The notes under the pieces were generated by a model that worked only from the letters and a program-made list of their open reading frames with translations, did not search any database and was not told the DNA's origin. Below are positions 4,501 to 60,329 of a stretch of DNA of 64,000 nucleotides, one piece after another (position 1 is the first letter of the stretch; every line of letters starts with the position of its first letter). The position numbers and the translations under genes are program-made. Origin of the DNA: Phoronis australis (taxonomy: Eukaryota > Animalia > Phoronida); contig NMRA01000002.1 in the NCBI GenBank assembly GCA_002633005.1, positions 1,953,023 to 2,017,022 on the forward strand. Reading direction: 5' to 3'.

Positions 4501-4936
4501 CACATTTTTTTTTACAAAGAATTCTTTTAATGTTCTTGATGTTTTTCCCGGAGGATTTACTTGGCAGTCTAGCTAACCTAAATACTCCGCTTGAATCAAG
4601 CGGATCAGATGTTAAAAAGAGTATGTACGATTTCCCAGTGTCTACAGGCGCTGTGCACAGCTCGGCACTTAATCTGGAGCTGAATCCGGCGACTGTAATC
4701 GTTCGCTTCTTCGGCAGCTCACTGGCTTTTTTAAAAACCTTAACGAGTCTTATCGTAGCATTATAAAAACCGTTCACCGGTCGCTTGAGCGACTGCACTT
4801 TCCCTACCAACACGAAGTCCGATGCGAGTGCTCGCGATCTGATATCGTCGAATTGCGACACACAAGTCCTGGATTTCACCATCTCTACAACACACAGTAG
4901 TCCAAAGATGACCAACTTCATATCAACTGCAACCAT
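4501..4936 (-). CDS. NRG2: First coding exon of a neuregulin-2/vein-like secreted growth factor (signal peptide plus NtA-like N-terminal domain); the gene continues off the left edge
   Basis: ATG at 4936 (alternative ATG 4921) and a hydrophobic signal peptide (KLVIFGLLCVVEMVKS). Motifs VLVGKVQSL, YILFL, VFRLARLP and GKNIKNIKRILCKKKC resemble the recalled NRG2 N-terminus (VVVEGKVQGL, YIFFL, VFKTAFAP, GKNLKKEVGKILCTDC). Strong phase-1 donor TGTG|gtaagt at 4501/4500. An agrin NtA assignment is less likely but not excluded; the Ig/EGF exons are not in the window. Confidence 0.75.
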
Positions 4937-5043
4937 GGCTAGCTATTTTAGCCCCTTCCTCTCAAAATTTATCCAAATGATAGAGACCGGCCTGAGCATG
5001 GCTTTTCTACCGTGAGTCTAACCACAAAATGACTTGGTTGTCG

Positions 5044-29046: not shown

Positions 29047-29134
29047 CTAGTCACCGTTGTCGTCATCACTGCCCTTGTCTTTCCTCGACGATTTCTTCTC
29101 CGGCTTTTCAGCAGATACTGGAGACTTGTTTGTG
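29047..29134 (-). CDS. SRSF7: SRSF7-like terminal coding exon
   Basis: tttccag|...TNKSPVSAEKPEKKSSRKDKGSDDDNGD* (TAG at 29049-29047). Confidence 0.82.
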
Positions 29135-32100
29135 CTGGAAAGTTGACGAGTTGTTTAAAGAGGGAAACATGACGCGAAAAGTGTGCTTTCTACCAACACA
29201 GATGTTAATTCCAAAGTAAAATTCCCACAGCACAAAGCATACACTGAACCATTCAAATTAATTCATTTCAAACTGTTAAGCAAATGCAGAGTTTACTACA
29301 GACAAAAACATTCTCATCACATACGAGAAAAAAAATTAACATTACTTTAGGAACTGTCTTGTTTATAGTGGTGCATACAGCGACACCTATATTTTACCAC
29401 AAGAAGTACAACAAGATTTGGACTACTTCAGTGCTGAAGTCACAAACAGGGTAAAAGATAAATTTTAAAGTTTTGCTTCCATTAAGATTTTGTAGAAACT
29501 TTATCAACAAGTTTTTGAAATATTACTAACTAAAGTATTTAACTCGGCAAAATTAAAAAAATTTTCGAGAGCAGAAATTCCATAGAATTTGATTGTTGAT
29601 ATTATACAAATCTGCCATTCACAAATTCACGTGACTTTTTTCAGTAAAATTTAGCAAAAAAGAAAGGTACATTCATAGCAAAACAACAGGATCAGTTACA
29701 TGACCAAATATCCTATAGTGTAAATGTTCAAACGCTGGCAGTTTTCCAGATTTTTTATTTGTTTCGTTTTCGTCTTATGCAACTTTAAAAAAATTTTTTC
29801 ACTAAATCCCATTTTTGATAGTACCTCTTGCAAAAACAATTTCAAAAACAATTCCTGAAGGAATTTTGGAGAATGATACATAAAGTATAATATCTGAGTT
29901 TCACGTGAATCTGTTCAGCAACTTCTGAGATATCATGATGAGAAGTTGGCCCAAACAGAACATTTTTCTATGGTCCGACAAAACCTTAAAATAATTTACA
30001 TGTCCTGAAACTTGATGCATTAACACTGATACAAATAGGTACACTGCATATATAATTTCATAACTTTTTATTATCAGTAGATATTATAAATGGATAAATC
30101 AATCACTTAGTACGATTTCCTTTCAAGAACTTTGCTACACAGAATGACAAGTACCTGTCTTCATTGTTTGGTTCAGGAGTGCGACTCTTAGAACGGGAAA
30201 CGCTTCTGGAACAGTACAACGAAACAAAATGCAAGCAAAACACAACAAGCAGCAGTTAGAACAACAGCTTAGGCGCTACAACAACTAAAGGCGTGGTCAC
30301 ATGGATACTTTAACAGGTCTGTTGACAGAACAGTTTTAACAGTCCTGTGTTGCCATGCACCAATGGGAGTGCACTGAATTATTTATGTAAATCAAGTAAA
30401 GAACCGGAATATTGATGAGGTGATGAACAGGAAGGTTGAACTGTTCACCAGCATGGAGTCAATCGTAGGATATGGGTTTGATGTGACAACACGAACTCAC
30501 GAATGCTAAAGGTAGTATCAAAGCAGTATTAGAAGTCAACTTTCATTGGCACAGGTAATGTTTTGCTTCTAACTTGAAACGTGAAGCAAGACTGAGAGGT
30601 TAAAAGTTCTTTTAAAGGTTGAAAACAATCCTCAAATCAATAATGCAATGCTAATTGTGCACAACAGGACTCTGTACCATTTCCTATTCTCACTATTAGT
30701 TTCATGGTCAATGTTACTGAAATACTTTGGACAAAAACAGTCAAGAGAATACTATAATTGCGTCAACCTAGTGTGATTTTGGAGAAAAAAAAACAAGTGG
30801 AGTGCTGACCAGTAAGTAGAGTGGATGCAACAACATGGATTTATGCACTTGTCTAGTTTGGCCAAAATACCAATATTAATGGATAACACTTTTTTGCCAA
30901 GAAATTTTGTACAGAGAAGACTAATACGCCGCTCGTAAGTTAAGCAAGGCCATTCAACTACATTTTCTGTTTACTGGCAAAACACTCTACATAGCAAGAT
31001 TTTTGCAGCTACTAAATGGAACTTGCCAAATGGCAAACCATTGCTAGAGTCACCTGGTGTACACTACTGTCTTCATGGAAGATGTTTTTGGCACAATGGA
31101 GAGCAGTTAGGGTGCTGTGCAAGAATGTGACATGACTACAATTTGTAAGCCAGTGGAAAACAGAGGTCGTCAGTCTCACGTGGCAACAAAAACCGTATTT
31201 TCTAAGTCAGCAGAGTAAGAACGGAAAGCTTGATAAATTACAAACAAGAGAAAACCACACCTCTTGATTTCCCTTTTCTCCTTTTCTGGAGATCTGGACA
31301 CAGAACGATCGTCGGATCTGGAATGAGATAAGTGATGTGTGCTCTCACTAAAAGCCTAAGCATGCGTTCTCAGGTTTTCCTAGGGTAGGCTAGATGAAAC
31401 GGCGAGTTCAGCGCAACACTTCATTGCCATCTACGTACATCTAGTAGACAACACCTAAGGATGAAGTGTGTTATTGCTTCTTAAACCATTTCAGGCACGG
31501 TTACAGAAGACAGCATCACAACGACTACAAAACTAGAGTTGAAGCCTCCAGCTCTACATATGAACCTACCTATTAGAAAATACGCTTCAATTAGTATGAG
31601 CAGCTGGCGGAGCAACAACTGACGTACACATTAAATATTCCACTGATATTGTAGGTGTCAGAACACAAGCAACGAAGCCTAAGTCATGCGGGTGGAAAAC
31701 AACAATTTACCTGGCAATGTAACTATTATGGAACAGGAAGAGCTGTGGTTAGCCTACCGTTTGGTATCTTTCTTGTGTCTTGGTGATTTAGAGTCAGAGT
31801 GACTACGAGAACGAGACTTGCTCCTGAAGAAAGCAACACAGAATGTCAGTGAAACCCTTCACAAGTCCAGCTAACAATACATCAAGAATGAATCTTTGAA
31901 CCACCAACTGTGATCAGGAGGAAGAATTGTGAATGACAGGAATTAGCTGAAAATTTGGCTCCACAATTTTGTCCTTTTTGTGATAAAATGGTTGTCAAAC
32001 TTTTTGATAACTAATATACTAGAGTGCCAATTAATATGAAAAAACTAGAAACTCTGGGCAATTTATATTTATTATTAAAAATTGAAATCACATGTCTTCC

Positions 32101-35100
32101 AAACACATCTAGAGTGGAGTTTAATAATTCAGAACTCAGCGATTCAGATTCTCAACTTTCAGTATTCACTAAGCAAACTACTCATTTCAAAAAATAGATT
32201 CAGGGACTCAAACAGCTTGCCACTCAGTTCAAAAAGATGATGAGCACATTGACATGAAGAAAATTGTCCAAACTAAGTCTAAAAGACCAAAATATATGAA
32301 CAATCCAATCTTTGTTGTACCAAAGTATCCATATCATGCATAAAAAGAAGCTAAATTGACTAACCTTTTCTTGGGAGAACGGGACCTGCTTTTGGACTTT
32401 GACCTATAAAAACATTACAAGCAGTCAGGAGCCTTACCAATGATCATACCATGGTCAATAAAACAGTAACAGTGAATTTTAAAATCTGTAATTTTGACGC
32501 TCATTGAAAGTTTAAATGCTGACTTAAACTTACCGCTTTTTCTTTTTATCCTTGTCCTCACGTTTCGTTGAACGGCTTCTTGACCTGATGATTAGGAAAA
32601 CAAAAAACAACGTTGAAAACTAAACCATATCAAAAACGGCAACTTGTTAATTCTTTCTCAAAAATTAAAAACACAGTATGAATTATGATTAACAAAGTGA
32701 AAGTCTTGGCTAATGCATAAACCTGGATAGATAGACACTTAGCAAAAAATTAAACGAAAACAATGAAGTCATCAGCAAAAATGATGGCAAATTTAGACTT
32801 AAAAACCTTGCTGAGCAAGATATTACTGTAACCAAAAGCGAACAAGCTCAACAAATAACCTTCATAAATAAAAGCAGAGCAATTTCTTAAGATCACACTA
32901 TTTACCTTATTTTTTCCAACACAGGCTTCTTAAAGTAACTACAACACCATGTTCCATAGAAAAAACTTGCTTCTTACTCAGATGTGAAGTGATTTATGGA
33001 TTTGTAAAGAATTGACAGTTTGTTACTGTTGAAGACTGTGTCCGGCGCATGAAATACCACACCACAACAAATCAATTCGTAAAGCTTGGGCTCAAGCAAT
33101 AGTCTGCCAGCTTAGAAGCAATGAAATGCGATCCAGTTTTATTCACAGGCATCCTCAGCTTCTGATCGTCCCCAATACACTACATATCATACTACAAGGT
33201 ATGACACTCGGGACTAGAAATTCCATGGGTGCTTTGATTCAGTCGTCCATATCAAACACATAACTCAATAAATTTACACAAAACGGGGTTCAACAAACCA
33301 TGAGCTATTGTTATTTCTTATAATACCAGTCACAGTGTCCTGCTCCAGCGAGTTCGCAAGAAATTCGCAGTCAAAGCCCAAAAATGTTCCCAAAAAGCCC
33401 CCACATACCTCACACTTGGACGATTCGAGGTCAAGGACGGTACAGAAATTGCCGGTTTGTTACGTAAAGTCATGATGTCGATAACTCTACACTTAGCCGT
33501 CCATTCGTAACTCATCCGTAATTTCCGTACTGGCTGAATCGAAGCACCCGTGGAATTTCTAGTCCTGAGTGTCATAACTTGTAGTATTATATGTAGTGTA
33601 TTGGGGATGATCAAAAGCTGAGGACGCCTGTGGTTTGATTAAAGAACATTTGAGACCCATTTCATAACAGCATGGTCTAAATGAAAAGTAGATTTTTGTG
33701 ATAAAAGGTGCTTTATAACCACTTTAAATAAGTTTGCCTTTTCAAGTCGTAGTTTATTGCATCATCGGTAAGAATACAGGCAATATGTCTTCATCTCACC
33801 TAGACTCGGAACGCTTCTTTGACTTTGATCGACTTCTGGACTTAGAGCGCGACCTGGAGGAAGACATTTAGACCTCAAACAGAACAAACTAATCAATCAA
33901 ATGCTAATACATTTTGCTTAGTTTTTGTTCGAAAACTGAAATACTGCACGTACTTGCACTCATTTTGTTTTGTATAAAAACCTAGTAATACAGAAATTTA
34001 AACAAGAGCATACACAATTCTAATCAAGCACAAAACACACTAAGTGAAGTGTCCTCGAAATGCAGATAATCGAGTTTGATACTTCAGTCAATGATTCAGA
34101 TTCTCAACTTCACGAAGCAAATTTCTCATTTGGAAAAATAGAAGAAAAAGCTGATGATCACACTTGACTCTGAGAAAACTATCCAAACTAAGCCTACAAG
34201 ACCAAAATGTATGAACAATACGATTTTCGTTGCTCCTAAGTATCCATATCGTGTACATGAAGAAGATAAATTCACTTACCTTTTCTTGGGAGAGCGGGAC
34301 CTGCTTTTGGACTTTGACCTATAAAAATATTACAAGCATTCAGGAGCCTTACCAATGATCATGTAAAGGGCAATAAAATAATAACAGTAACTTTTAAAAT
34401 TATAATTTTTATGCTAATTAAAAGTTTGAATGACCACAACTTACTTCTTTTTCTTTTTATCCTTGTCCTCACGTTTCGCTGAACGACTTCTTGACCTGGT
34501 GATTAGGAAAACAAAAAACAATGTTAAAAACGAAATCATCTCAAAGTAGAGTTCAAGCAAATGGCGAATCACAGTAAATGATAGTTTTTTCAAAAAATTA
34601 AAAACAGCATGAATCATCATTAGCAAAGTATAAGTCTTGGCTAATGCTTAAACTAGGAGAGATAGACACTTTATAATAGCAAAATTAAATGAAAATGACA
34701 TTCACAACAAAACTAACAAATTTAGACACTAAAACGTTGCTGAGCAAGTTGACAAAGTTGATATTTACCAAAAGTGAACAAGCTCAACAAATATGAGCAG
34801 AGTAACTTCTTAAGATCAAAGTATTTACACTATTTTTTTTCCAAAACAGGCTTCTTAAAGTGACTATAACACTATGTTCCGTAGAAAAATCAACTTTTAA
34901 TTTAGACCACTCAATGCAACTTCAACGGTCTAAACTTGCTTCTTACTTAGATAGTTGTGATTTATGGATTTGCAAAGAATTGACATTTTGTTACTGTTGA
35001 AGACCATGACTGGCGCATGAAATACCACACTATGACAAATCAGTTTGTAATGCCTAGACTCAACCAGAAGTCTGCCAGATCTTTGGAAGACCTGAAATGC

Positions 35101-38100
35101 CCTCCAGTTTGACTAAGGAACACTTTGAGACACATTTTATAACAGCAAGTGGCCTATTAAATGAAAAGTGGATTTTTGTGATAAAAGGTGGTTTATAGCC
35201 ACTTCAAATAAGATTGCATTCTCAAGTTGAAGTTTACAGGCAATATGTCCTCATCTCACCTAGACTCCGAACGCTTCTTCGACTTCGATCGACTTCTGGA
35301 CTTAGAGCGCGACCTGTAACCAGACACTTAAGACTTCAAACAAAAGCAGAATAAGCAAGCAAATACAGAATCTGGGTTAGTTTTTTCCCCAAATTGAAAA
35401 GTTATATACTGCATAAGCTTGTACTTTTTTGTTTTGTGTGTAAACCTAGTAAGGAACATTTGAGACCCATTTCATAACAGCATGGTCTACATGAAAAGTG
35501 AATTTTTGTGATAATTCTAATCAAGCACACAACAGGAAAGAACCACCAGAAAAAAACAGCTATGAAGAAATAAAGAAATGATCCACAAAGCAAGAATGTA
35601 ACTTAAAAAAATCTTCAAATGTGATTCACGTAATATGGCCGAAACAAATAACTTAAGGGTATTCACATTCAATAGTTAGTCAACACATTTTCCAGCGCAC
35701 CAAGAATTTGCAGTATCTCATATCGCATATTACCTGTTCTTCTCCTTCCTTGGAGATTTGGAGCCTGACTTGCTCCTAGAACGGGATTCGTCCCTGAAAT
35801 ATCATAAACATGACAGTCAACACGCATAATCTACTTAGGCAAAAAACCAGTGAGTATTATGCTGTCTGGCAGTAACTTTTACAGAATCCAATTATCGTAT
35901 TCAGAAACCTGGCCAGGGTCTTTTCCCAAGAAACAAACTGCACACTCAACTAAAAATGTTTTTGGAGGTGAACCTTTAGGTTTTCCACTAAAACAAACAA
36001 CTAATTTTATTCAGACCATTGTTTTATGCTACATAATCAGTCGATGAATTAAAAAACTAAACAAATGTTTGCTCATTCCCTCTGAAGATGGCACTATTCC
36101 TTTTCTGGCTTTGATAAAAATTGCGACTAGGATGTATAGAAGTAGTCAGATCAGTACGAAAGTCCTCGTCTTCCATTGTATGTTTTTGTGGGTGCATAAA
36201 ATATATAATGTAGGAAATTTTATGCCATTTGTTACAAAACCTAGGAAGCACTGTTTAATTAGAATGCTTTACTTTTTTTGAGAAGCTTTGTTGAAAACAC
36301 GACTAAACTTTGTTCGAAAGCTTGAAACCGAGTTGGTCGTAGTGTCGAAACAATCTTGAGCGACTTGGTATCAACATTTTCCAAAAAAAGTTTAGTCGTG
36401 TTTTCAACAAAGTTTGTGTTGACGAAGGGCTGCAACCGAACTATACTGATTTTTTAAGATGCTAAAAACACACGTGACCCAATAACCCACTACAGATCTT
36501 GCATGCTTAAAAAATAATGAATATGTTAAATTTCATTCAAGACTGAACAATCACACACCTCTTGCTTTTCTTAGATGGTCTCGGTGATTTAGACCCAGAG
36601 TGGCTTCGGGATTCTCTGAAAGAAAAATAACAATGAAACGACCTCAGAAAAACTCCAAATAATCAATATGACTTCAGCAGGCTGCATAATGCAGTGGAGA
36701 TTTCAGTCATTCAGTCAAGCCATTAAATGCAAAAATTGAATCAAGCACTGGACTCAGTTCATGAACAGGCTACCCAAACAACTCGGCTCACACACTCAAG
36801 AAGACAGCTCACTGACTCATAAGCATTGCTTGGCACGTACAAAACACTGCATGCACACCCAAAAATATGGTTCACTGACTTGCGTCATTAAGACTCCAAC
36901 GTATAACTCGGCAACATGTGTGACGTGTTTGCAGGTGCAGAAGCCAAGTACGCAGTGCAGGAGCTGAGCTGTTTGGGTGGCTAAGCCACGCTTTATAAGG
37001 TCGTGAGTGCACGAGTCGTGTTGTGCGGGAAACCCGGATAAGTTGACAATAGCAGCGCTAACACATCTCAATAACTCCTATAAATAACCGAGTTGAAAAG
37101 AAGGAAATGGCAACACGACATCGACAAAATGGCAATACGAGGACTACCAAAGCTGGAATGGTTAATACAAAGGACAAGCTTGGCCAAATCACACAAGACG
37201 TGTGGTGGTAAGGCAACAATACAAAGTACTTTGCACAACACTTATATACGCATCAGGTTAGTGAGACAGCATGCAGCAAATTCTTCATGTTCCACAGACT
37301 GCAGTACGTGACAAAAATAATCAGACAAAATATCATCATGACGGCTAGTTCTGTTGACAATAAATACGACTGATAATAACTATTAGGGTGACAAAATTCT
37401 AATTACAGAACAGCTTAGCCACCTCAGTATTACGCCTGTTAATTCCCCTTCATTCTTGATCACGAGGGAAGACTGCTCTGGCGATGAATTTGGCTTCTGC
37501 CCAGCCATCACGATGGGGAATTCTGGGTAATTTTGTCTGAGTACTTTTGGTTTGTACTGTGTATGAAGTTTTGAAGCCTACACTGGCAAATTAATTACCG
37601 TGAGAAGATACTGCATGCAAACATAAGCGTGCAGCAGATTACTGAACGGAGATACAAGTTTTGTGGTTTGACTGCCAATTTGTCCAAATATCCAAAATAA
37701 AGCTGCGAGTTGCAAGGCAGTCCCTGCAAAGCAAACACTGTGTTTTTTCAGGACTTTACATCAAGTCTGAAAATTATTTTGACTAAAACTCTGAAGACTA
37801 ACGCAAATTACTTAAATAGACATTGTGATGTATAGTGAAAGAGATGTTCATAGCATTTTTAACATAAGTACCTCTTTTTGGTCGGTGTGCGAGAACGGGA
37901 GCGACTCTTCGAGTCTGACCTTGACCTGCGAGCGACAAACAAAGCTGGTGAGTGCAACTAAGTCCAGCTGCTATATCAGCATTACAAAGCCAATCATCTG
38001 TTACACACAAGTGGTTAGTCAAAACACCTGTTTAGTTACTGGTACTTCATCTACTATAACAAATATATTCTCCGAGGCTATGTCTGGATTCCTTCCTTTT

Positions 38101-41100
38101 GAAATAATACTGGACATAATTGTGTTATTATAAAACTCAAACTGCATTAGTGATTTGCACAATCCAGTTCTCATTCCAGCACTATTGACACGCCATCAGT
38201 AACCATATGAATAAGACTGACATAGAGATCCTGATTTTGTACTTTAATTAAAAAAGATACATAAAAATAATTTCCTCCAGCGCTTTTGAATGTGGTGCAT
38301 ATTAATACATATTTTAACAGTAAATTACAAAACATGTAACAGAGAAGCAAAGTACTGTACATGCGTGCTGGCACTAATTTTCGTAGCATTGGAACCAGAT
38401 AAATGACAAGGATATGGCCCATTAAACAAAAGCTCTTCTAAAACTAATTTGGCACTGGAAAGCATTGTTGTAAAACTCAACAAGAGCTCTGGGATGCACA
38501 ATAGGATGATGATAAATGATCACCAGTCTCATCATCATTCATACCATCACTCACGGGAAACCTCTTCTCATCATTTATCGTTGCTCAGAGATAAGAAATC
38601 ATAAAACTAATCAAGCGTGACGATAAACTTTACACAATAAAATTTATATAAATCATTAATATGAATTACTATCGAGTATTAATGTCATACTATGCCACTC
38701 ATACAAATTCACAAAAACAGTCATAAAAAATCTTTTTCTGATTAATTATGATAAACCAAAATTGTCTCTGTACCGCTTGGTCTTTTTAGCCTTGTCGTCA
38801 GAATGCCGTGGACTTCGACTTCTGGACCTGAAAGTCAGAAGATAACAGCTCAGACAACAGATAATGCCAAAGGCCAAATTACTGACACTAAGATTTGACT
38901 CTAGCTTATTTAAACACACGTTACATCAGTACACTGGAGCACTTAATAAGTTGGGAAAACAAGAAAATAACTTCCATATTTTGTGACACAGTTAGGCATA
39001 CAGACTGGTGTAGACTGTGTATACTATCCATAATTGATCTTGCCAATATTGTCCCTATCCATTGTGATTTGATAAACTGAATAAGGGAAACTTGGAGCAT
39101 AGACAGAAATGCTTAAGATATGTTTATCTAAGATTATGTGATATTAATAACGCTCATTATACCTCAACCTTCAAAAGTTATGAATTATCAGTTTGGACAT
39201 TGACAGCCTGTGGCGTGCTGCAGTACTTTTCCTTTTTCAACTCATTAAAATATCATGAAAGGTGCATCTCAGAAATTAGGAATTCTCGACTCTTTTTGAC
39301 ACAATGACGCAGGTTGGAAAAAAGTAGCTCCGATAGAATTGAAATTTCCACAAAGGAAAATGCCCGAGGAGTAAACTGAGTTTTCAACAATGTGAACAAA
39401 GGCTATCTATGAGGTCAATCACTGGCCAGCAGGGAAATGTTCAAATGGGAGTGACATTTCAGTGAAATTCACTGACCTGATTTCATTATCTTAAGATCTG
39501 GCCGTAAGTTATTCCTCTGGAAGTACTCAGGCAGGAATACGCCGGTAACATTTAAAAAACTACCACATACACATTGTAGGACATTAATACCTAAAACTGA
39601 AACTTTACTGCAATGCACTTGTTCACAGACAATTACTGTGAGTTAATTCTACCAAACCGTGTGTTCTTCGAAAATTCCACCACAAGATTTTGTCCGAAAA
39701 TTTTAGTCCAGTAAAAATGTTTGTCCCTAGTAGATTTCAGTGGTATACACTGGCATATCAAAGTAAACCAAGTGACTGACAGCACCCCCTGTGATCCTCC
39801 CATGTCATTATGTACCGTGAGTTGGATCGTCTATGTGACCTTGACCGGCTCCTTGACCTAGATTGTGACCTGAAATGAAGGCAATTAAGTTGACGAACCA
39901 ACAAACAAACACGCTCATGTACAATATGTTCACTTCCAAAGAATCTTTGTAATATTTCTCAAAACTGATTGCCTTCACCATAGTAGAAACCCGCAAATTC
40001 TCGTTGGCTTTGTTCGACGTCATGAACATTTTGCACACATAATGAGTAAAAACGTCCAACGAAACGCAACATCTCAGCAATGCTTTACCTTCCTAGTTCC
40101 CACGTGTGCCTCCAAACTATTACGCGTTCATCATTTAACATTTAACTAAAAATCCCCATAACTAATCCCTCAAGTGTTCCCTACTGTCTCTGCATCATTT
40201 GTAAGGGAGGAAACATGCAGATGCATGTCTCTTGAAAATAGAACGTGTTCGGAGACATGTTGCATTGAAGCCGACTCAAATCCACTTCAGCAGGGCAACT
40301 GCCACAATCTGCAAATAAAAGTCAGCAACAACAACCGCAATGATCAGCAACTTTGCTATCAGGACGACCACTTCTTTCTGACCTAGTAGAGCAGCGAATC
40401 ATATACAGCAGCCGAAGACCATGTGGTTCCAATGCCATGCGAGCCTGCAAACCATCTGCTTTCCAGTGTAGTCAATATCATGTCTTTCTAGAGAGCACAA
40501 CGACACCTAGCCACAAGAGGAGAAATCACCGTATGTCGTCGGTTACTTGCTTATGCACTGAATGTGGTATCACAATAACAACATGTCTCCAGAACAGGTT
40601 ATCGTTCCAAAACCACTTTAAATAATAATCCATAATTCAGTAAAAAGTGTACGCTCCTAATTTTGGAAATCAAATTAGTTTACTTTTTTCAAAAAATGAC
40701 AATATTACATACCAGTAGGGAACACTTAAAATGTACTTACTGTGTCTGACAGCATCTATTCATAAAAATCAATTACCTCGGACAATCAAACTCTGATTAG
40801 AATTTGTGTGTGTGCGTGGCCACCTTACAGACGGCACTAGCTGCCCCACGACGCACTCGCAGTAAATGACAAGTCTCGTACAATCGTACAGCGTGCAGTG
40901 TTTGTAGGCTGCCGTATCTATGGACTCGCTCGCCGGGGATTAAAGATGGCGTTAGAAGCGCTTAAGAGTGGCCGAGAGTGACCAGACAGTGGTGTCGGCC
41001 TTGCCTCAGAGCTCCCTCTGCTGGAGTTCACGTGCAAGTGAGTACGCGGGCGACCAAACGCGACCAAGCTCTCGACTAGGACTTAACATTTGAGTAGGGC

Positions 41101-44100
41101 TGATCAGAGTAGGTTTATTGGTGAGTACTCGCCTAAACAAACAGTGGGTAGAATGTGTCAGCCAGTCGCCAACAAAGCAATGACGTTCAAATGCATTATC
41201 ACTGAGAAGAAGTGGTTGACAGCCAAGACCACATAGCTGAAGCCATAAAAGAACAGGTAGTTGCCATGACGACTAATCAGTTACAGTTATGAAAGGGAAT
41301 ATTTGGTTAAGCAGTTCTGACTACTAATGACAGTAGTCAGTCAGCTGTGGCCCAGCACAATCACTGAAGGTGTGTCTGAGAGTTTCACAGGAGAACAATA
41401 TGCAGTTATGCATGTATTAATACTTACAACACAGTTGAAGCTGAGGGATTGAAAAACGGCACCAGAGGAAATCATAACAAAATCCAACCAGGAAAATGAA
41501 TGAATACGAAACTCATAATGAACATTTTGAATAACGTGACTAAGAGCAGACAGACTGACAAGGTGACGACTGGCTATTGTAGCACTTACCGATACCGGCG
41601 ACTTCTGCGGCGTGTGCACTCCCGGGCGAAGTGGCCCACGCGGTCACACTCGTAACACCTCATGGTGCCCCGGGGTGGGGGTCGCCTCCCATACGAAGGT
41701 GGCCTCCGGTCCCTGCGCCCGCTGCCAAATGGTCTGGCATGCTCCACCCTCACTTGACGTCCACAGACCGACCTGTGCATTGAAGAAGCAAGATACCAGT
41801 GAAGCAACTTCTGATGGAAACATGTCTCCTTTGAACGACTGACATTCAGTCTTAAAGGGTAAGAGTTGAGGTTATCTTTCTATCTAATGAACTATCTGTT
41901 CCTGGTGCCAATTGTAGAAATTTAACTTCTTTAAAAGGCAATATACAGTGAGTATGCAATCATCAAAAATTTCAGTACATGATGTGATACATCCATCTTC
42001 AGTAAAATGGTTAAGACTAAGTTTTTTTTTGAAAAAGCAAAACAAAGGATGCATCCTGTAAAAGATCTAGACCAGGAATTTGTTACCTGAATGTCACTTC
42101 AACTTACTATACGGTACTTGCTAAAACCTCCAACAGTCTCAGCATTTCCCTCGATTAAATGGTAAACAGTACACAGACAATCATTTAGAATAAGATTGAC
42201 AAAATATGGAACTAGATGAAACACAATACTGAACAAATTACAACAAATACAAAGTGTCAAGCGTTATCTTCTTATTTTAGGACCTGTTTCACTAAAACAT
42301 CGTAACTTTACAACATTTTCAAGCAGCTGTCTAACAGGAGACTTTGCAACTGGTCATAACTCACTGTTTAGACTCTATGTAAAAAGCATTGTAAATTTAC
42401 AATTTAACAAGGCAGGCCTCTGCAGCGAATAATAAAGCTAGCAGAACACTACAGAACTAGCCACAGCAAAGCTGATCCAAATTTTGACACTTTACTTAAT
42501 GTTTAGGATTTCGTTTCTACACACCAAAAACGTCAAGGACTCATCTTCTTTGTAAACTTTTGACACAGCAAAGCAACTTATATCTTGTTGAGGTGTAATT
42601 TTGAGAAACAACACCATTTGCAGCGCCACGAATCAGCCCGCTAGACGGCGTTAGAGAGCGCTAATCTTACCGCCCATCCACATCATGCACGGCCTTTTCA
42701 GCATCTTCCCCATACTTGTAGGTAAGGAAGGCAAAACCAGCAGGGTGTCTAAAAGGTAACAACAGGCTGATCACATGACTACTAGTTTTACTCACCGTCC
42801 ATTCATTTTCTGAACTACTTTCTCCGCGTCATCCTCATATCTATAAGTAACATAAGCAAACCCGGGAGGGTTTCTGAAAAGAAGACAAAATGCTGTCGTG
42901 TGAAGGGAAGCATGCATCAGACAGATAGCAAAGGGTAACACCTCACAATGTGCACCATCTAAATCCCCACGGTACACTGTTACACCCCCCCCCCCNAATT
43001 TCCAACAAACATTAAGTAAAAATGACCGTTTAGTTTCGTACTTTTTGCAGGCTTCTAAGATCATAATGAATACATATCATATAGCTATTCACAAATGTTG
43101 TGTGACCACTGGCTTTGTAACACAACTCAAAATGGTAAAAGTTTCATAAGGCACAATTAATTCTATGAAAATGCATACGAAGAGGAAAGCGCAACTTAAC
43201 CGACACATCACGACGATCATGTCCTGAAAATGGTAAGAGTTTTAACGTACACACACGGAGTACAATGCCAGTGGTAACAAAGTCATGGGCTTGGCACGAC
43301 GCGTTATGAAAGTGTTTTGCTGAAATGTTTCCTAATGGAAGACTGGATCAAAGTGAAAAAACAAGGAAGCAAACAAAACAAAAAGGGAGTGTGACAAGTC
43401 TTAGGGTGACCATGAAGAGACAAAATAAGTGGAAGTTTAAAAATTGCCTGTACGATATCCAATATATATGAAAGTCTAAAGCTCAATCAAAAGACGGTAC
43501 GAGTTCTTTCTCTCATTTTCTACACGCAGTCCATTTCTTTGAAATATTTGTCTCCAGATCAGCAGCGTGCAAAATGATGCTCATTTTAGAAGAGCTTTCG
43601 TTGTGTCTCAATCACCTCAATTACTGACATCGAATGTGTATAGTAAGCAAATGTGCTCAAACATACATGCTCGTCGAGAGGCGTTGCCAATTTTGCAACT
43701 AAAGTGAAGGTCGTTTGGTTCATTTTATCAGTTATCTCAGGCGGAGCAAAAGCCTACCAGTTGGAACTCAACATATGGATGAAATCCATCGTTTCTAACG
43801 TGGTTCTTTAACAAGAANGTAAGAGTTTTAACGTCCACACACAGAGTACAATGCCAGTGGTAACAAAGTCATGAGCTTGGCACGACGCATTATGAAAGTG
43901 TTTTGCTGAAATGTTTCCTAATGGAAGACTGGATCAAAGTGAAAAAAACAAGGAAGCAAACAAAACAAAAAGGGAGTGTGACAAGTCTTAGGGTGACCAT
44001 GAAGAGACAAAATAAGTGGAAGTTTAAAAATTGCCTGTACGATATCCAATATATGGAAGTCTAAAGCTCAATCAAAAGACGGTACGAGTTCTTTCTCTCA

Positions 44101-46040
44101 TTTTCTACACGCAGTCCATTTCTTTGAAATATTTGTCTCCAGATCAGCAGCGTGCAAAATGATGCTCATTTTAGAAGAGCTTTCGTTGTGTCTCAATCAC
44201 CTCAATTACTGACATCGAATGTGTATAGTAAGCAAATGTGCTCAAACATACATGCTCGTCGAGAGGCGTTGCCAATTTTGCAACTAAAGTGAAGGTCGTT
44301 TGGTTCATTTTATCAGTTATCTAAGGCGGAGCAAAAGCATACCAGTTGGAACTCAACATATGGATGAAATCCATCGTTTCTAACGTGGTTCTTTAACAAG
44401 AACATTTCGGCACTTTGCAGTGTCTGACATGCACACTGAGAAATTCTGATCTCTGAAAAATACTTTAACACTTCCCAGGAATGGGGAGGTTGGGAAAAGT
44501 GTCCATTTTGTATAATGGAGATCACTGTGATTGGACCATGGATATGATACATGAGAACCTATGTGCAACCCCTAAAACCAAGGCATGCCCCCATCCGGGC
44601 CGTAAACTTGGGGCACCTGCTAACTAGAAAATAATCGGATGATATTGGTCCCTGACAGTGACTACTACAGAACATTTCAATTGCTAAACATATATAACTT
44701 GTTGAAAATTAATTCTCTAATTGGTGGTTAGCAATAAGCTCAATGGGCTTGTGTTTCTCTATGCTGTGTGTAACAGTTTCGTTCTTCAAATTGGACACTC
44801 CTCTAAAAGATAGAATGATTGTAAAAAATTCTCTCTTACATTGCCAAAACCATTAATTGGCATTAATTTTCAACCCATTTCGTAAACATTTATGCTGTTT
44901 ATCTTGGTCACTTAATTAAGTCACTCAGGTCTACAGAAACACCACCAAAATGAGTTAGACCGTGATTTGATGATTCAAATACTAGGAAGCCACTCAACAG
45001 TTTTCAAAAAGCCTAATGATAAGCCAAATACAACATCCTGCAAATGAGAAGTATGCTAATCTATTTCAAAGTTCTTCCATTGTAAAATTCTCTGAAGACA
45101 TTTAGCAACAGGATCAGGATGTTCAACGGGTCTAGACAGATCACCCGCCTGTGCTGCCACCTCTCAGCATGGGTGCCATATGGTAGACATTACCACCATC
45201 AGAACTGGACCAGCACAGCCAACACAGATGGTCATCAACCCCTAGGGTTGCCATACACAGGAAGCTTTTCGCCAAATTATGCTTCACACTGACTGATTGT
45301 GAGAATATTTGTTAGACTTTGAAGGCTTTGTGGTAGACAAGCATCCCATGAATCATAGGAGCCTCAGTTAGCCACACACTGAGGGACATTGCCTGTTAGA
45401 TGAATGGTTAACAGTAACACACTCAATGGTTTTATCTGGGTCGCTGGTTAGATTCCCAAGTCGGTTAATCTCCGCTATTACTGTGCAGATTCTAACTGAC
45501 TCCAAGTGCTTATATCTACATTCAAACAGTACACATAATAACGTGACTGTTATAGTTTAGCCAGGGTTAAGTGCAATAACAAAAATATGCAGAAACTTTT
45601 CCAGCGTAGGGTATACAGGACACAGCAAGGATTCGAGTAAAAATCGATCGGAATAAACAAAAGGTTAATGTGGAGGAAACTTTGCTTTCAGATATATTGC
45701 TTAGATTAAAAGAACCATACTTCAAAACTCTTCAAGAGCGGTAGCAAACACTTTTGCAAATAAAAAGGAAGTAAGTAATTAAGTAATGTAGTCACAAACA
45801 GCTCAGTTTGCCTGTTGTTAGTTAGGTCACTTGGATTGACTTGGAAAGATAAAGAAGGAAACAATCGGTTCAATTTTCAGCTGACTGAAACGCATTGTAA
45901 TGGCCTTACCGTGCTACCCAAACATCTACAAGTGGTCCGTAATATTCAAACTCTTTCTGTAAATCATTTTTACCAATTCTGTTTCCAATATCGCCAACAA
46001 AAACCCGATAACCACCGAGTGCCCGATCCTTTACGGCCAT
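29047..46040 (-). CDS. SRSF7: SRSF7/9G8-like serine/arginine-rich splicing factor (RRM, CCHC zinc knuckle, long RS/K-rich tail); 18 coding exon positions, about 406 aa
   Basis: Join 46040-45910, [42873-42796 or 42748-42671], 41772-41590, 39869-39816, 38827-38774, 37925-37872, 36615-36559, 35793-35734, 35313-35260, 34495-34445, 34318-34280, 33853-33800, 32584-32534, 32403-32365, 31823-31758, 31317-31261, 30205-30155, 29134-29047. Total 1221 nt, open throughout, every intron GT-AG and phase 2. Motifs RVFVGDI (RNP2), VWVARNPPGFA (SRSF3/7 signature) and CYECDRVGHFAREC. It may be a divergent paralog rather than the strict ortholog. Confidence 0.9.
30155..30205 (-). CDS. SRSF7: RS microexon 17 (51 nt)
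   Basis: SVSRSKSRTPEPNNEDS; ttccag| and |gtactt. Confidence 0.82.
31261..31317 (-). CDS. SRSF7: RS microexon 16 (57 nt)
   Basis: SDDRSVSRSPEKEKREIKR; ttccag| and |gtgtgg. Confidence 0.82.
31758..31823 (-). CDS. SRSF7: RS microexon 15 (66 nt)
   Basis: SKSRSRSHSDSKSPRHKKDTKR; cttcag| and |gtaggc. Confidence 0.85.
32365..32403 (-). CDS. SRSF7: RS microexon 14 (39 nt; copy 2 of exon 11)
   Basis: SKSKSRSRSPKKR; tttatag| and |gttagt. Confidence 0.83.
32534..32584 (-). CDS. SRSF7: RS microexon 13 (51 nt; copy 2 of exon 10)
   Basis: SRSRSTKREDKDKKKKR; atcag| and |gtaagt. Confidence 0.83.
33144..33632. mobile_element. MITE (489 bp) with about 100-bp TIRs and an 8-bp TSD (P- or hAT-like)
   Basis: Left end CACAGGCATCCTCAGCTTCTGATCGTCCCCAATACACTACATAT... 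matches the reverse complement of the right end with scattered mismatches. TSD GTTTTATT (33136-33143) and GTTTGATT (33633-33640). The paralogous empty site GTTTGACT is at 35107-35114. Confidence 0.88.
33800..33853 (-). CDS. SRSF7: RS microexon 12 (54 nt; copy 2 of exon 9)
   Basis: SRSKSRSRSKSKKRSESR; ctccag| and |gtgaga. Confidence 0.85.
34280..34318 (-). CDS. SRSF7: RS microexon 11 (39 nt; copy 1)
   Basis: SKSKSRSRSPKKR; tttatag| and |gtaagt. Confidence 0.85.
34445..34495 (-). CDS. SRSF7: RS microexon 10 (51 nt; copy 1)
   Basis: SRSRSAKREDKDKKKKK; ccag| and |gtaagt. Confidence 0.83.
35260..35313 (-). CDS. SRSF7: RS microexon 9 (54 nt; duplicated block, copy 1)
   Basis: SRSKSRSRSKSKKRSESR; ttacag| and |gtgaga. 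Confidence 0.85.
35734..35793 (-). CDS. SRSF7: RS microexon 8 (60 nt)
   Basis: DESRSRSKSGSKSPRKEKNR; tttcag| and |gtaata. Confidence 0.85.
36286..36412. repeat. Intronic palindrome (26-bp perfect outer arms, imperfect inner arms), probable MITE remnant
   Basis: CTTTGTTGAAAACACGACTAAACTTT ... AAAGTTTAGTCGTGTTTTCAACAAAG; inner arms TTGAAACCGAGTTG and CGACTTGGTATCAA. Confidence 0.8.
36559..36615 (-). CDS. SRSF7: RS microexon 7 (57 nt)
   Basis: ESRSHSGSKSPRPSKKSKR; tttcag| and |gtgtgt. Confidence 0.83.
37872..37925 (-). CDS. SRSF7: RS microexon 6 (54 nt)
   Basis: SRSDSKSRSRSRTPTKKR; cgcag| and |gtactt. Confidence 0.85.
38774..38827 (-). CDS. SRSF7: RS microexon 5 (54 nt)
   Basis: SRSRSPRHSDDKAKKTKR; tttcag| and |gtacag. 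Confidence 0.85.
39816..39869 (-). CDS. SRSF7: RS microexon 4 (54 nt)
   Basis: SQSRSRSRSRSHRRSNSR; tttcag| and |gtacat. Confidence 0.85.
40829..41132 (-). other. Candidate poison (PTC-containing) cassette exon in SRSF7-like intron 3
   Basis: Acceptor ctgtttgtttag| at 41132, in-frame TGA at 41008-41006, and donors after 40829 (gtaagg), 40777 (gtaatt) or 40741 (gtaagt). It forms a GC/CpG-rich island in an AT-rich intron, in the same intron as the known vertebrate SRSF7 poison exon. Confidence 0.55.
41590..41772 (-). CDS. SRSF7: SRSF7-like exon 3 (RRM end plus zinc knuckle)
   Basis: SVCGRQVRVEHARP...MRCYECDRVGHFARECTRRRSRRY(R); cag| and |gtaagt; 183 nt. Confidence 0.92.
42671..42748 (-). CDS. 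SRSF7: SRSF7-like exon 2b (78 nt, RNP1, variant B)
   Basis: cttttag|...HPAGFAFLTYKYGEDAEKAVHDVDG(R)|gtaaga; same length and phase as exon 2a. Confidence 0.88.
42796..42873 (-). CDS. SRSF7: SRSF7-like exon 2a (78 nt, RNP1, variant A)
   Basis: ttttcag|...NPPGFAYVTYRYEDDAEKVVQKMNG(R)|gtgagt. Confidence 0.88.
43233..44402. repeat. Near-identical direct duplication (about 585 bp) either side of an N at 43818; probable assembly artefact
   Basis: 43233-43817 and 43819-44402 differ by only a few SNPs and small indels; the junction is exactly the N. Confidence 0.85.
45910..46040 (-). CDS. SRSF7: SRSF7-like exon 1 (RRM N-terminal half)
   Basis: MAVKDRALGGYRVFVGDIGNRIGKNDLQKEFEYYGPLVDVWVA(R); donor CG|gtaagg. 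Confidence 0.92.
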
Positions 46041-46118
46041 CTTAGTTTTTACAGGTCAGCGTCTCTTCAGTCTCGCGTTCTCGTTGTTTATACGAGACTT
46101 TGCTGTTCCCTGGCGAGT

Positions 46119-46126
46119 TATTTATA
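46119..46126 (-). promoter_or_regulatory. TATA box of the SRSF7-like gene
   Basis: TATAAATA on minus about 80 nt upstream of the ATG, implying a TSS near 46095; TGACGT at 46142-46147; CpG-rich context. Confidence 0.55.
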
Positions 46127-48439
46127 GTCGGTTGTGGCGCTTGACGTTGGCTCTTACCTGTATAGGCAGTGGGTATTGTGATACAATCGGATATTGTTCC
46201 TAACAGTTGTCTTCAAGTATCCTAATTGATCAGATATTTATTATTCCTATTACAGTCAGTGCTATTGCTATGTTTCTCGTGTTTTCTCCATTGCTTGCCG
46301 CGGTCAGTGTCCGGGGTTTCTATCTTCTTTTACCCGAATTTTCTGTAATTCCAATTTGCCGAAATCTATGGATACGGTTGCCTCCCCCATCGTTTCCACG
46401 ATGAAAGCGCGATAATGTTTAATATGTTCATTTTGGCAACTGACAAAGAAAGGGAACAAAATGTGATTATAAATGTACATTTCGAAAATAAAAACGCATT
46501 TTCGCTATTTACTTTACTTCGGCTTACATACCATACCTAAACTGAAAGTGCCAGATCATATTTCCCTCGTTCCTGAAATAGGCTCGTGACACATTTGATT
46601 ATTTTTAAACCGAACTAATTTGTAAAATTTCATGTTAGTCAAACTTGTCTGTTCATTGTATGAAAATGGTGTCCGCCTGCATTCATTTAAATGGAGGTTA
46701 TGGGTTTTAAGGCCGAAAACGTAGTGATTTTTTTTTGGGGATTACTGTCAGATGGGGTAGATTTTTTGAAGTTATTAACTTTGACCAATGTTATAAAACA
46801 ACAAAATCCGTTGTGTTTTATGTAATTTCAAATTTTCATTATCAGACATTGGTTAAAATGGAGACCAATGATTTTACCAGTTAAATACGCTTAAAATACT
46901 TTATCATCTACGGAGTTGGACTTAGTGGCCATCAGGGTATTAAATTGTGAACTCAAGGGTTGCAGGTGCAATTCCACGTAGACGGAGATTCATCTCAGGA
47001 AATCATTTTTTTGCCGAGCATGGCACTTTAGGCACGAAAAGCAGGCTATGGACCATGACACAAGAGAAACATGCACTAAGTTGAGACGTAGTGGTCTGTA
47101 TCGATAGTCAGTGAAGCTTGAGGTCATGCTCCAATAAATGTGAGAACAGCACGCCCGTAAAAATTCAAACATCAAATTATATTGGATATGCGTGTACTAT
47201 GATACACTATTGTAGGAGACGCACGCTACTGTAGACTCAGACTTACTCAAATGGATGGGGTTTCAGGACTCAGATTCTAGCTCGAAAACTGATTTCATTC
47301 CCCAAAATGAGTACATTTCATTTTATAGCACCGACGTTGCGGCTTGCGTACGAACGACATGATGAGTCACAGAAAGAGATGGCGGCGACCAGGCTGATGG
47401 TGTTCGACCTGGACGTAAGAGGCAAGAAACAGGGACCAATCGAAGGCAAGACGGATAGGGGCAGTCTGAAATTGTGGCGACCGGGCGGCGGAGGGAGGGC
47501 CTGTTGCGAGACGGCATCTGTTGCGACTAGACACTAAAGTACCCAATAAAAGCCCACAACAAAAGTCTCGTCCAGTTTGCAAATGACTGCAAAGTGCACG
47601 GGAATTCAGGAGAGTTTTGGAATGTATGAATCAGTTTTTCAGTGCCGTATTCAAGTTGAAATTATATAGCTCAAGGAGCTATTCATTAAATTTCAATTAA
47701 ATAAATAAGCACAACCCCCAACAAATGGATGAAGTTGGACTAATCACCATCATCAAACAAAAATCATACAGGAAATTTAAAAAAATGACGTTCGTCCGAC
47801 CTGGCCAAATTCCTCCCGGCATAACAAGCGACACTTATATGAACTTGGTCATTTTTATTTTTAGAATTTGATGAAAAGATGATGAGATGAAAGCAGATGG
47901 CTTAAAAGTCCTTCGACAACAGAAAAATGTAAGGCAAGAGCAATCACATCAATTTTCGGCTGCCGGTTTAGCATTAAATTATGACCCCGTGAAAAAATGA
48001 CCCATGGCCCCAGCAATAAACCTAACCTGTTTTCCGGGCCTCACACGCTGACGTCAAGGATGGCTTATGGTCTGTGCAGGAGACTGCAATAAACCTGTCG
48101 TGACTAGTTTCCAAGTATATCAATAGATGTCACTGAAATATAAGAAAAATTTTCGATTGTTTCCCCTGCGAGAGAAAGCATTTTCGTTATTATCTCCCTT
48201 TTCGTTGAAACTTTCGTAGTAGACATTTGCCGGGAGAATTCCCTCCCCTTTAATGTGTCGAATTGTTTTCGATATCAAAAATAAACATAAAATATTTGCC
48301 CCACACACATCCTCTTTATATATTCAAAATTCTGCTCTAAATCTAAGAAATCTCCAAAAATGCAAAAAATATTTAAATAAAAACTGTTTGCGAAAACACA
48401 TAAGTTGTGGGAGGGTAAGAGAACGGCAGAACGCCAATT

Positions 48440-55826: not shown

Positions 55827-56510
<684 letters not shown>

Positions 56511-58790: not shown

Positions 58791-60329
58791 TTATGTGTTA
58801 AAAACCATTGTGAATTGCCAAATTTGGAAATATGTGTGCTGTGATTCCATTGGCAAGCATTGTTGAGCCATGACAATTTGCCTCTCAGCAGTGTCGGGGT
58901 ATGGGTCAGTTACATGCGTCATACACGACTCACTGTTTCTCAGCTGTCCGTGTTCATTGTACATCCATATCTGTTTTCTGTCTTCCGAACTGCAGTCAAT
59001 GAAACTAATGTACCAATTGTCACCATATGAAGCACAGAGGTTATTATGCATCAGTCTGCCCTCTTTTGTCAGTCGTATAATTTGATGCTGGTTCAATACT
59101 GAACATAATTTGCTGGCGACAAGAACACGTTCGGCGTTCAACTGGAAACATGTCCGACTTCCCTCAGTCCTCATCTGACCGTATGCTCTTAATCCTGGTG
59201 GAGGTACACCAAAGGGGTCATTTGCCACTTTGTTGATGTACCAATCAAAATCTTTGCATTGAAGTGCATTGTGGGTAATTTTGGCAAATTTTTGGTTGTC
59301 ATTTGACTCGAGTTGTTTACCTGAGGCTAGAAGTAAATGCTTGTACTTTCTGACAAGTCTCTGCTCAAGAACTGCTTCTGTTCTGGAGTCAACAGTTTCT
59401 GATGGAAACAACAGTGGAGCAGTCACTCTGGAACAGGATGTGGTAACAATACCCCCGCCACACCTCCAAATGGCTGTGCTGAACATCAGCACACTGGTGA
59501 AAGGTTGGCCGCTATTTAACTTAATCAATCGGGTGGCATACATTTTGTGAATGGCAAACACTCTGCTATCTATTGCTGACATTGAGATTGGCTGAGCTTC
59601 ACTGGTTAAGTGAATACGTTCATTGTAAGCTAGTTCATATGGCACAGGTTTCAATGTCCAACTGAACATCATTTTAATCATCTTTGGTGACTGCCACTGG
59701 TGGCTGATTTCGTAACTAAGTTGGTCCACCTGTGACACCGCTACTGTGTTTTCATGGTCCTTCATAGTCATCACCAGCGGTTCTAGCCAACCTCTATTGA
59801 CCACCATGGCAGCGTCGAGAAAAACCAAGATAGGTCCCTTTGCCTCAGGTACTGTGAGCAGTTTTTGTTGAAATGTATTCACTGTCAATTGGCTACTGAA
59901 AGGAAGAAAATGCATTTTGAGTGTCTTAAATTTTCGTTTAAGAATTTTGCCAATACCTCCATCAGCATGTGAGATAATTACCATGACTTCACTCATTAGT
60001 GCAGTAGGAGTGTTGGTGAAGATACTTTCCAAAGTTCGTGTGATGGAGTCAACAGTTTTGTTGAATGCCATGACGACAATTGTAGATTTGAGGAGCCCTT
60101 CTGAATAAATCTGTTGACACTCTTCTGGCCTTGTGTCCACTGGCCATCTCATAACTTGGAATTCCCTACTTTCTGCTACTGTTTGATCTTTTCCACTATT
60201 CTCCCCAGAGAATGCCTTTACTCCATGTCCATGTCCTTCTTGATTCAAGCAAATGAGAAAAATAATCCAAATGGACACAAAAAGTGCCATCCAAAGTCCC
60301 CTTCTTCTCCATACTCTTGTTTTCAACAT
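58791..60329 (-). CDS. Intronless polypeptide N-acetylgalactosaminyltransferase-like protein (GT27 fold plus ricin-B lectin), probably catalytically inactive; 512 aa
   Basis: First in-frame ATG at 60329 (the track start 60359 is a GTG; in-frame TAA at 60377-60375). Type II TM segment GLWMALFVSIWIIFLICL; motifs PVDTRPEEC, ITRTLESIF, GPILVFLDA, GWLEPL, IWRCGG..CSRV, CKDFDWYI; ricin QxW repeats (KQIW, FQIW). Confidence 0.88.
   Translation of the reverse strand: MLKTRVWRRRGLWMALFVSIWIIFLICLNQEGHGHGVKAFSGENSGKDQTVAESREFQVMRWPVDTRPEECQQIYSEGLLKSTIVVMAFNKTVDSITRTLESIFTNTPTALMSEVMVIISHADGGIGKILKRKFKTLKMHFLPFSSQLTVNTFQQKLLTVPEAKGPILVFLDAAMVVNRGWLEPLVMTMKDHENTVAVSQVDQLSYEISHQWQSPKMIKMMFSWTLKPVPYELAYNERIHLTSEAQPISMSAIDSRVFAIHKMYATRLIKLNSGQPFTSVLMFSTAIWRCGGGIVTTSCSRVTAPLLFPSETVDSRTEAVLEQRLVRKYKHLLLASGKQLESNDNQKFAKITHNALQCKDFDWYINKVANDPFGVPPPGLRAYGQMRTEGSRTCFQLNAERVLVASKLCSVLNQHQIIRLTKEGRLMHNNLCASYGDNWYISFIDCSSEDRKQIWMYNEHGQLRNSESCMTHVTDPYPDTAERQIVMAQQCLPMESQHTYFQIWQFTMVFNT

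Follow-up and report, generated by a model that had tools for sequence, protein, structure and literature searches.

Can a single splicing-factor gene exchange the RNA-binding face of its only RNA-recognition motif (RRM) through alternative splicing? The question is raised by a gene on the reverse strand of a 64,000-nt stretch of the phoronid Phoronis australis (assembly GCA_002633005.1, contig NMRA01000002.1, positions 1,953,023 to 2,017,022), hereafter the window, in which two homologous 78-nt exons, A and B, lie in tandem and are separated by an intron of 47 nt. An original prediction, made from the sequence, held that these exons are mutually exclusive and swap the RNP1 half of the RRM of an SR protein, so that two splicing factors with different RNA-binding surfaces would be made. 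This interpretation is partly supported: the exons are a real, expressed, old and apparently lineage-specific pair of mutually exclusive exons (MXEs) that encode part of an SR protein's RNA-binding face. SR proteins tune their own amount via poison exons. If true, the swapping of the RNA-contacting loop and the RNP1 strand of a sole RRM would let one gene change the RNAs it binds.

Gene structure and the exon pair

The observation of the exon pair is confirmed. Each exon is 78 nt long, of phase 2/2, open and bounded by AG and GT, with the translations originally claimed; the two are identical at 51/78 nt and different at 27/78, and their 3' splice regions are homologous. Their RRM likeness is not a matter of chance. 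Positions 38-61 of Pfam RRM_1 match the A peptide at E 6.7e-6 and the B peptide at E 9.1e-4 (19.5 bits, slightly below the 20.7 cut-off), and a profile built on 32 distinct sequences of orthologous exons, from which the window was excluded, scores A at 50.3 bits and B at 46.6 bits.

The 47-nt gap was claimed to contrast with next shortest introns of 126-130 nt, and this was borne out within the gene: the 17 introns of the B path range from 126 to 3161 nt, the shortest being 126 nt (inferred from GT-AG ends and frame) and 130 nt (splicing supported by reads). Retention of the 47-nt intron leads to a stop codon.

Exon 1 has SRSF7 and SRSF3 as its top PDB matches, exon 3 carries a CCHC zinc knuckle (Pfam zf-CCHC, E 5.3e-6), and the B-isoform translation has 406 aa with 84 RS/SR dipeptides. 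The layout of an SR protein is present, i.e., an N-terminal RRM (Pfam RRM_1) followed by an RS domain, and by family membership the product would act in splicing and in sequence-specific RNA binding.

RNA-seq junctions

The RNA data comprise three raw-read RNA-seq runs selected by species label (X2, X3 and X4, from one study) and a contig run from another study (X1). Reads were placed on positions 41300-46500 at 90% likeness, 18-19% of each raw run being sampled, which aligned 242 (X2), 120 (X3) and 53 (X4) reads. Joints were listed when they had at least 3 reads and at least 2 start places per run.

For X2, X3 and X4, respectively, the junction from exon 1 to A is covered by 16, 7 and 2 reads (25 in total), from exon 1 to B by 33, 23 and 3 (59), from A to exon 3 by 11, 4 and 5 (20), and from B to exon 3 by 39, 12 and 5 (56), the last joint also being present in X1. 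All four exclusive junctions are seen in 3/3 raw-read runs, and for each exon the reads entering and leaving are in balance (25 vs 20 for A, 59 vs 56 for B). At the listing threshold, neither an A to B joint nor an exon 1 to exon 3 joint was found, against 160 exclusive junction reads. Of these, 45/160 belong to A and 115/160 to B (about 28% vs 72%), counts that are not independent since one read may span both junctions.

Each copy is spliced singly between common flanking exons, and A and B are a mutually exclusive pair, as predicted. In these reads both exons are used and no routine splicing of the 47-nt intron is listed, so that neither outcome named as refuting the prediction occurred. Among the joints listed further downstream, most of those of the gene are supported by reads as well. 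The features discussed are collected in Table 1.

Table 1. Coordinates of the exon pair, its gene and the predicted pairing arms in the window.
Feature	Position	Strand	Description
Coding exon 1	45910..46040	-	RRM beta1 (RNP2), alpha1 and beta2; joined by reads to A and to B
Predicted upstream docking arm, intron 1	45786..45820	-	11 perfect pairs plus a second helix; would loop out A
Alternative exon A (minor)	42796..42873	-	beta2-beta3 loop NPP; Tyr in RNP1 (SRSF3 position 50); alpha2
Intron between A and B	42749..42795	-	47 nt; predicted steric block and shared pairing arm
Alternative exon B (major)	42671..42748	-	Loop HPA; Phe in RNP1; alpha2 more acidic
Predicted downstream arm	42620..42643	-	Predicted to pair with the 47-nt intron over 23 bp, which would mask the branch region of B and loop B out
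Exon 3	41590..41772	-	RRM beta4, linker, CCHC zinc knuckle; junction reads
Start of stop-bearing exon after exon 3 (poison-type or alternative terminal)	41006..41132	-	In-frame stop 41008-41006; candidate donor near 40740
RS-domain exons (fifteen, short, in-frame)	29047..39869	-	From read joints, boundaries and translation; stop at 29047

Enforcement of exclusivity

The exon paths 1-A-3, 1-B-3, 1-A-B-3 and 1-3 are all in frame. Since every exon combination is in frame, nonsense-mediated decay (NMD) is unable to enforce exclusivity; it was rejected as the enforcer on double inclusion, as the original prediction argued, and on double skipping, which is in frame as well.

The remaining proposal of that prediction was steric hindrance. 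Plausible branch adenosines lie at positions 20-28 of the 47-nt intron, i.e., 20-28 nt from the A donor, and a branch point less than about 50 nt from the upstream donor follows from the geometry alone. The available text of PMC7969005 gives a steric threshold of about 50 nt between 5' splice site and branch point for vertebrate pairs, and that of PMC6071210 treats a too-short intron as a recognised mechanism in two-exon clusters. Any plausible branch point would thus lie too near the A donor for simultaneous binding of U1 and U2. A steric block by the 47-nt intron, with the branch points as candidates, is quite likely what enforces exclusivity. Steric hindrance fits the geometry, yet the prediction overlooked a second possible mechanism, a predicted competing RNA duplex, which is considered below.

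Family placement and age of the duplication

Protein searches with a single exon peptide as query gave no matches, while the alignment of A and B used as query did match; a comparison with the Atlas returned only generic RRM clusters. The A and B alignment query yielded 286 related stretches in metagenome contigs, the best 80 loci of which were used. The same 78-nt AG/GT-bounded exon is present in 13 of these best 80 (L001-L008, L010-L013 and L021, some being near-duplicates), whereas L009 is contiguous at the exon site and the exon of L019 is shorter. When the 80 loci were scanned with a sensitive profile, 0/80 contained a second full exon copy, the window alone having one. Four distinct genes (L008, L011, L012=L013 and L021) include both flanking exons within the locus, and in these the exon is certainly single; the flanks of the other loci are incomplete. 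Given the exon is single in 13/13 orthologous loci found, the duplication looks lineage-specific, although closer relatives with a B-like exon may be missed.

The proteins give the same picture. The B loop sequence occurs in 0/151 proteins compared, and the Octopus and Schistosoma cluster members with the motif have one exon version each (the motif is absent in 7/31 members). Two proteins flagged for two RNP1 motifs as exon-pair candidates were rejected, being ordinary two-RRM proteins.

The duplication itself is old. By comparison of the two sequences, the proportion of synonymous differences (pS) is 0.80, i.e., saturated, and that of nonsynonymous differences (pN) is 0.23 (Fisher p 1.2e-5), which indicates an old duplication with both copies under coding constraint. 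Thr52 is common to A and B and occurs in 0/32 distinct subfamily sequences, which suggests the duplication is later than the split from the sampled relatives.

The original prediction placed the gene in the SRSF3/7 family. A profile search returned 178 proteins, and among the best 120 of these the highest-ranking belong to cephalopods, bivalves, bryozoans, rotifers, an annelid, flatworms and the hemichordate Glandiceps; the zinc knuckle is retained in the Glandiceps protein. A midpoint-rooted tree was built from 41 RRM rows (39 picked from the 120 proteins plus both isoforms); its bootstrap is rough and not fully settled, and long branches are present. The window gene falls in a separate 21-row clade (100/100) with spiralian and hemichordate proteins, apart from the amphibian SRSF7, arthropod, sea-star and cnidarian homologues, and does not group as a canonical SRSF3/SRSF7 orthologue in this tree. 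Judged from the tree, the gene is a distinct SRSF3/7-like paralogue: the likeness to SRSF3/7 stood, and canonical orthology did not.

This clade is itself a second SRSF3/7-like paralogue group, made of spiralians and one hemichordate, with no member among the vertebrate, arthropod and cnidarian rows. Most of its members have no zinc knuckle, and a literature search found no paper on it.

Residue differences on the RNA-binding face

Residues are numbered as in SRSF3 and compared with 78 distinct homologous exon sequences. Exon A keeps Asn44 and Pro46, and Tyr50 (found in 4/78 homologues) replaces the RNP1 residue Phe50. Exon B keeps Phe50, and His44 (1/78) and Ala46 (0/78) replace Asn44 and Pro46. 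Phe48 is common to both. In all, the peptides differ at 12 positions, mostly in columns variable within the subfamily, and in charge (A -1, B -3).

According to the available text of PMC11100773, Asn44 of human SRSF3 contacts the sugars at positions 3 and 4 of the motif, and the fourth-base pocket consists of Trp40, Asn44 and Phe48. The major exon B hence alters a documented RNA contact. With Asn44His and Pro46Ala in the beta2-beta3 loop of B, Phe50Tyr in the RNP1 of A and the charge difference, a shift would be expected in affinity, or in preference at the bound motif's 3' end, and it is plausible that RRM-A and RRM-B bind RNA differently. Separately, a single-exon orthologue (L012/L013, positions 4003-4080) has His44 like exon B, probably independently.

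Predicted RNA pairing of the short intron

Pairing was first scanned over 10 region pairs. The downstream duplex (-32.3 kcal/mol) is matched by 4/1000 query shuffles, 10/1000 target shuffles and 0/15 other exons of the gene, and its helix is present in both the minimum free energy (MFE) and the centroid folds of 42560-42960. The upstream duplex (-32.6) is matched by 3/1000 and 1/1000 shuffles, within the first 300 nt of intron 1. Both use the same intron nucleotides. Among GC-matched windows (n=1182), 7 reach the downstream value and 17 the upstream value, and 0 reach both. The overall fold of 42560-42960 is no better than shuffles (z -0.53), and neither is a selector-type pairing of the region upstream of A.

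By this prediction, the 47-nt intron would alternate between two partners, the arm downstream of B (favouring A) and the arm near the start of intron 1 (favouring B), and would help to set the ratio of the two forms. We regard a role of this predicted pairing as possible, at somewhat less than an even chance. Two overlapping CUAAC motifs that resemble branch points lie at 45828-45818 (reverse strand), where the predicted upstream arm borders on the rest of intron 1, and may be a site for a STAR protein or SF1.

Weighing of the explanations

Taken together, these results lead us to consider the following reading fairly likely: the 78-nt RNP1 exon of an SRSF3/7-like gene was long ago duplicated in tandem, giving rise to two mRNA forms, one copy is used per mRNA, the 47-nt intron is the probable steric lock, and the predicted proteins may differ modestly in RNA binding.

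Several results weigh against this reading or its parts. The pair is absent from every relative sampled (80 metagenome loci and the proteins compared, no close relative being among them), which leaves no conservation or covariation to support it. The share of A is 27%, 24% and 47% in X2, X3 and X4, with no significant difference (chi-square p 0.22), so that regulation is not demonstrated; moreover, the raw runs all come from one study, were sampled at 18-19%, and joints with fewer than 3 reads per run are unlisted. As for the steric lock, its threshold is derived from vertebrates, the minimum intron size of this animal may be smaller, and some invertebrates splice introns as short as 47 nt. 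As for RNA binding, the His44 of the single-exon orthologue indicates this residue is tolerated, and at positions 13 and 80-82 the constitutive exons depart from SRSF3, which means the SRSF3 contacts may not transfer to the protein of this gene. As for pairing, the upstream window was chosen after the initial 10-pair scan, and 1/15 control exons gave a stronger upstream duplex; windows of the same geometry over the 64 kb (n=2570) reach the downstream value in 44 cases, the upstream value in 75 and both in 6; the ensemble probability of the downstream helix varies from 0.03 to 0.84 with window and temperature; 8/23 of its pairs are G-U; and a third site, 45168-45117, also pairs with the intron (-36.0).

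The strongest alternative is that the pair is real and exclusive yet functionally near-equivalent, i.e., a duplicate locked in by the short intron, both copies being kept because each is used and must fold. The apparent restriction of the pair to one lineage, the unchanged A/B ratio among the three samples and the position of most of the 12 differences in variable columns all agree with this, and purifying selection would be expected even without distinct functions. It is countered by the major exon, which alters two loop positions conserved in 77/78 and 78/78 homologues, one of which contacts RNA in SRSF3. We consider near-equivalence a serious possibility, though one we lean against.

A second alternative takes the competing RNA duplexes, and not intron length, as the main switch, on the model of srp in Drosophila or ATE1 in humans. 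In favour of such a switch are the two duplexes, which overlap on shared intron nucleotides and have a shuffle p of 0.001-0.01 apiece, the scarcity of either value and the absence of both in GC-matched windows, and the downstream helix in both folds; the pairing topology also resembles that of srp as described in the available text of PMC4691838. However, the pairing was read post hoc and without covariation, the probability of the downstream helix is unstable in a region whose overall fold does not exceed shuffles, the upstream duplex would mask part of B's own pyrimidine tract, and the length of the 47-nt intron may alone give exclusivity. Duplexes as the main switch are thus deemed unlikely.

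Lastly, although an N at 42996, another at 43818 and an almost identical 585-nt tandem copy within intron 1 could point to an assembly artefact or to alleles that set two versions of one exon in tandem, this origin of the pair was rejected as highly improbable on divergence (27/78 nt with saturated synonymous sites), on the N-free join between A and B and on the expression of both exons in 3/3 samples, with most reads at an identity of at least 99%.

The duplication with a steric lock is hence the reading we retain. Its boldest extension, in which the 47-nt intron would be both the steric lock and the arm common to the two states of an RNA switch, by which the sole RRM alternates between two RNA specificities, such that the targets and not only the amount of the protein would be self-switched, appears improbable at present. 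Nevertheless, the pair offers a natural two-variant test of the role of the near-invariant NPP loop in SRSF3/7-family specificity, and the locus is small enough (about 300 nt and a single distant arm) to serve as a compact model in which steric hindrance can be told apart from competing RNA structure. Its weight is limited because the pair is apparently lineage-specific, the animal is a non-model one and regulation is not demonstrated.

Other features of the locus

Exon 3 is joined to the acceptor at 41132 in 5 X2 reads, with sense depth over 40156-41562; this stop-bearing exon and the intron coverage resemble the poison exon and retained introns of SRSF3/7. Within the RS domain, two in-frame cassette exons (reverse strand) were observed: 39869-39816, which X4 and X1 include but X2 and X3 mostly skip, and 30205-30155, with 39, 40 and 0 skip reads in X2, X3 and X4. 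X4 is unlike X2 and X3 in its use of these exons. A three-exon RS-domain block (54, 51 and 39 nt), introns included, is duplicated in tandem at 35313-34280 and 33853-32365 (reverse strand), and joints traverse both copies.

The 585-nt tandem copy of intron 1 spans 43233-44404, with 576/588 columns identical and an N at the join; reads show copy-2 letters on copy 1 at 3/4 sites checked. It is probably two alleles joined by the assembly, in which case intron 1 may be shorter than shown. Dispersed intronic repeats, covered by reads of both strands and rich in loose ends, occur at about 29640-29690, 33140-33620, 37380-37510 and 45180-45290. Elsewhere in the window lie what we take to be an agrin N-terminal domain-like exon (4463-4942, reverse strand), a stretch like the first exon of a CDKL-type kinase (about 55960-56230, forward strand) and a single-exon open reading frame of about 510 aa like a polypeptide GalNAc-transferase (58794-60374, reverse strand).

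Comparison with known systems

No paper describing the exchange of an RRM exon within an SR protein was found in the literature covered, which included the available text of PMC9741552, PMC9013439, PMC8373072, PMC8652244 and PMC4379411, with supplements and most subscription papers falling outside this scope; MXE catalogues in supplements could list RRM cases. The gene shares with vertebrate SRSF3 and SRSF7 a single RRM, an RS tail and, as in SRSF7, a CCHC knuckle, as well as an exon with a stop downstream of those for the RRM and the knuckle, which recalls the poison exons covered in the available part of PMC8652244. It differs in belonging to another clade, in an intron inside the RRM that creates the 78-nt exon, and in a far longer RS tail (406-aa protein).

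As described in the accessible parts of PMC4691838 and PMC7797038, respectively, exon 4 of Drosophila srp and exons 7a/7b of human ATE1 resemble the present case in that inter-exon elements pair upstream or downstream. Pairing there is conserved and mutationally proven, whereas that of the window is predicted. In addition, srp has two separate internal elements against one predicted internal arm here, and the ATE1 partners are two 3' splice-site regions, whereas the predicted partners in the window lie near the start of intron 1 or just past the B donor. With OGDH 4a/4b, as far as the available text of PMC7969005 describes it, the gene shares a branch region that lies within roughly 50 nt of the upstream donor; in OGDH the intron is longer and the branch points used are distant ones, whereas the intron of the present gene spans 47 nt in all and its branch points are candidates.

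The closest precedent is U2AF1, another splicing-factor gene with exclusive tandem exons in an RRM-fold domain. Its exons 3/Ab (U2AF35a/b) are tandem-duplicated, mutually exclusive and exchange part of that domain (PMC5224494, in the text available), and the isoforms differ in splice-site preference (PMC6821156, likewise). In these sources, the U2AF1 domain is a protein-binding UHM with changes at RNP2 and helix A, and NMD clears its double and null forms, whereas all forms of the window gene are in frame. Unlike U2AF1, the window gene swaps the RNA-facing loop and RNP1 of its sole RRM, and does so across an intron of 47 nt.
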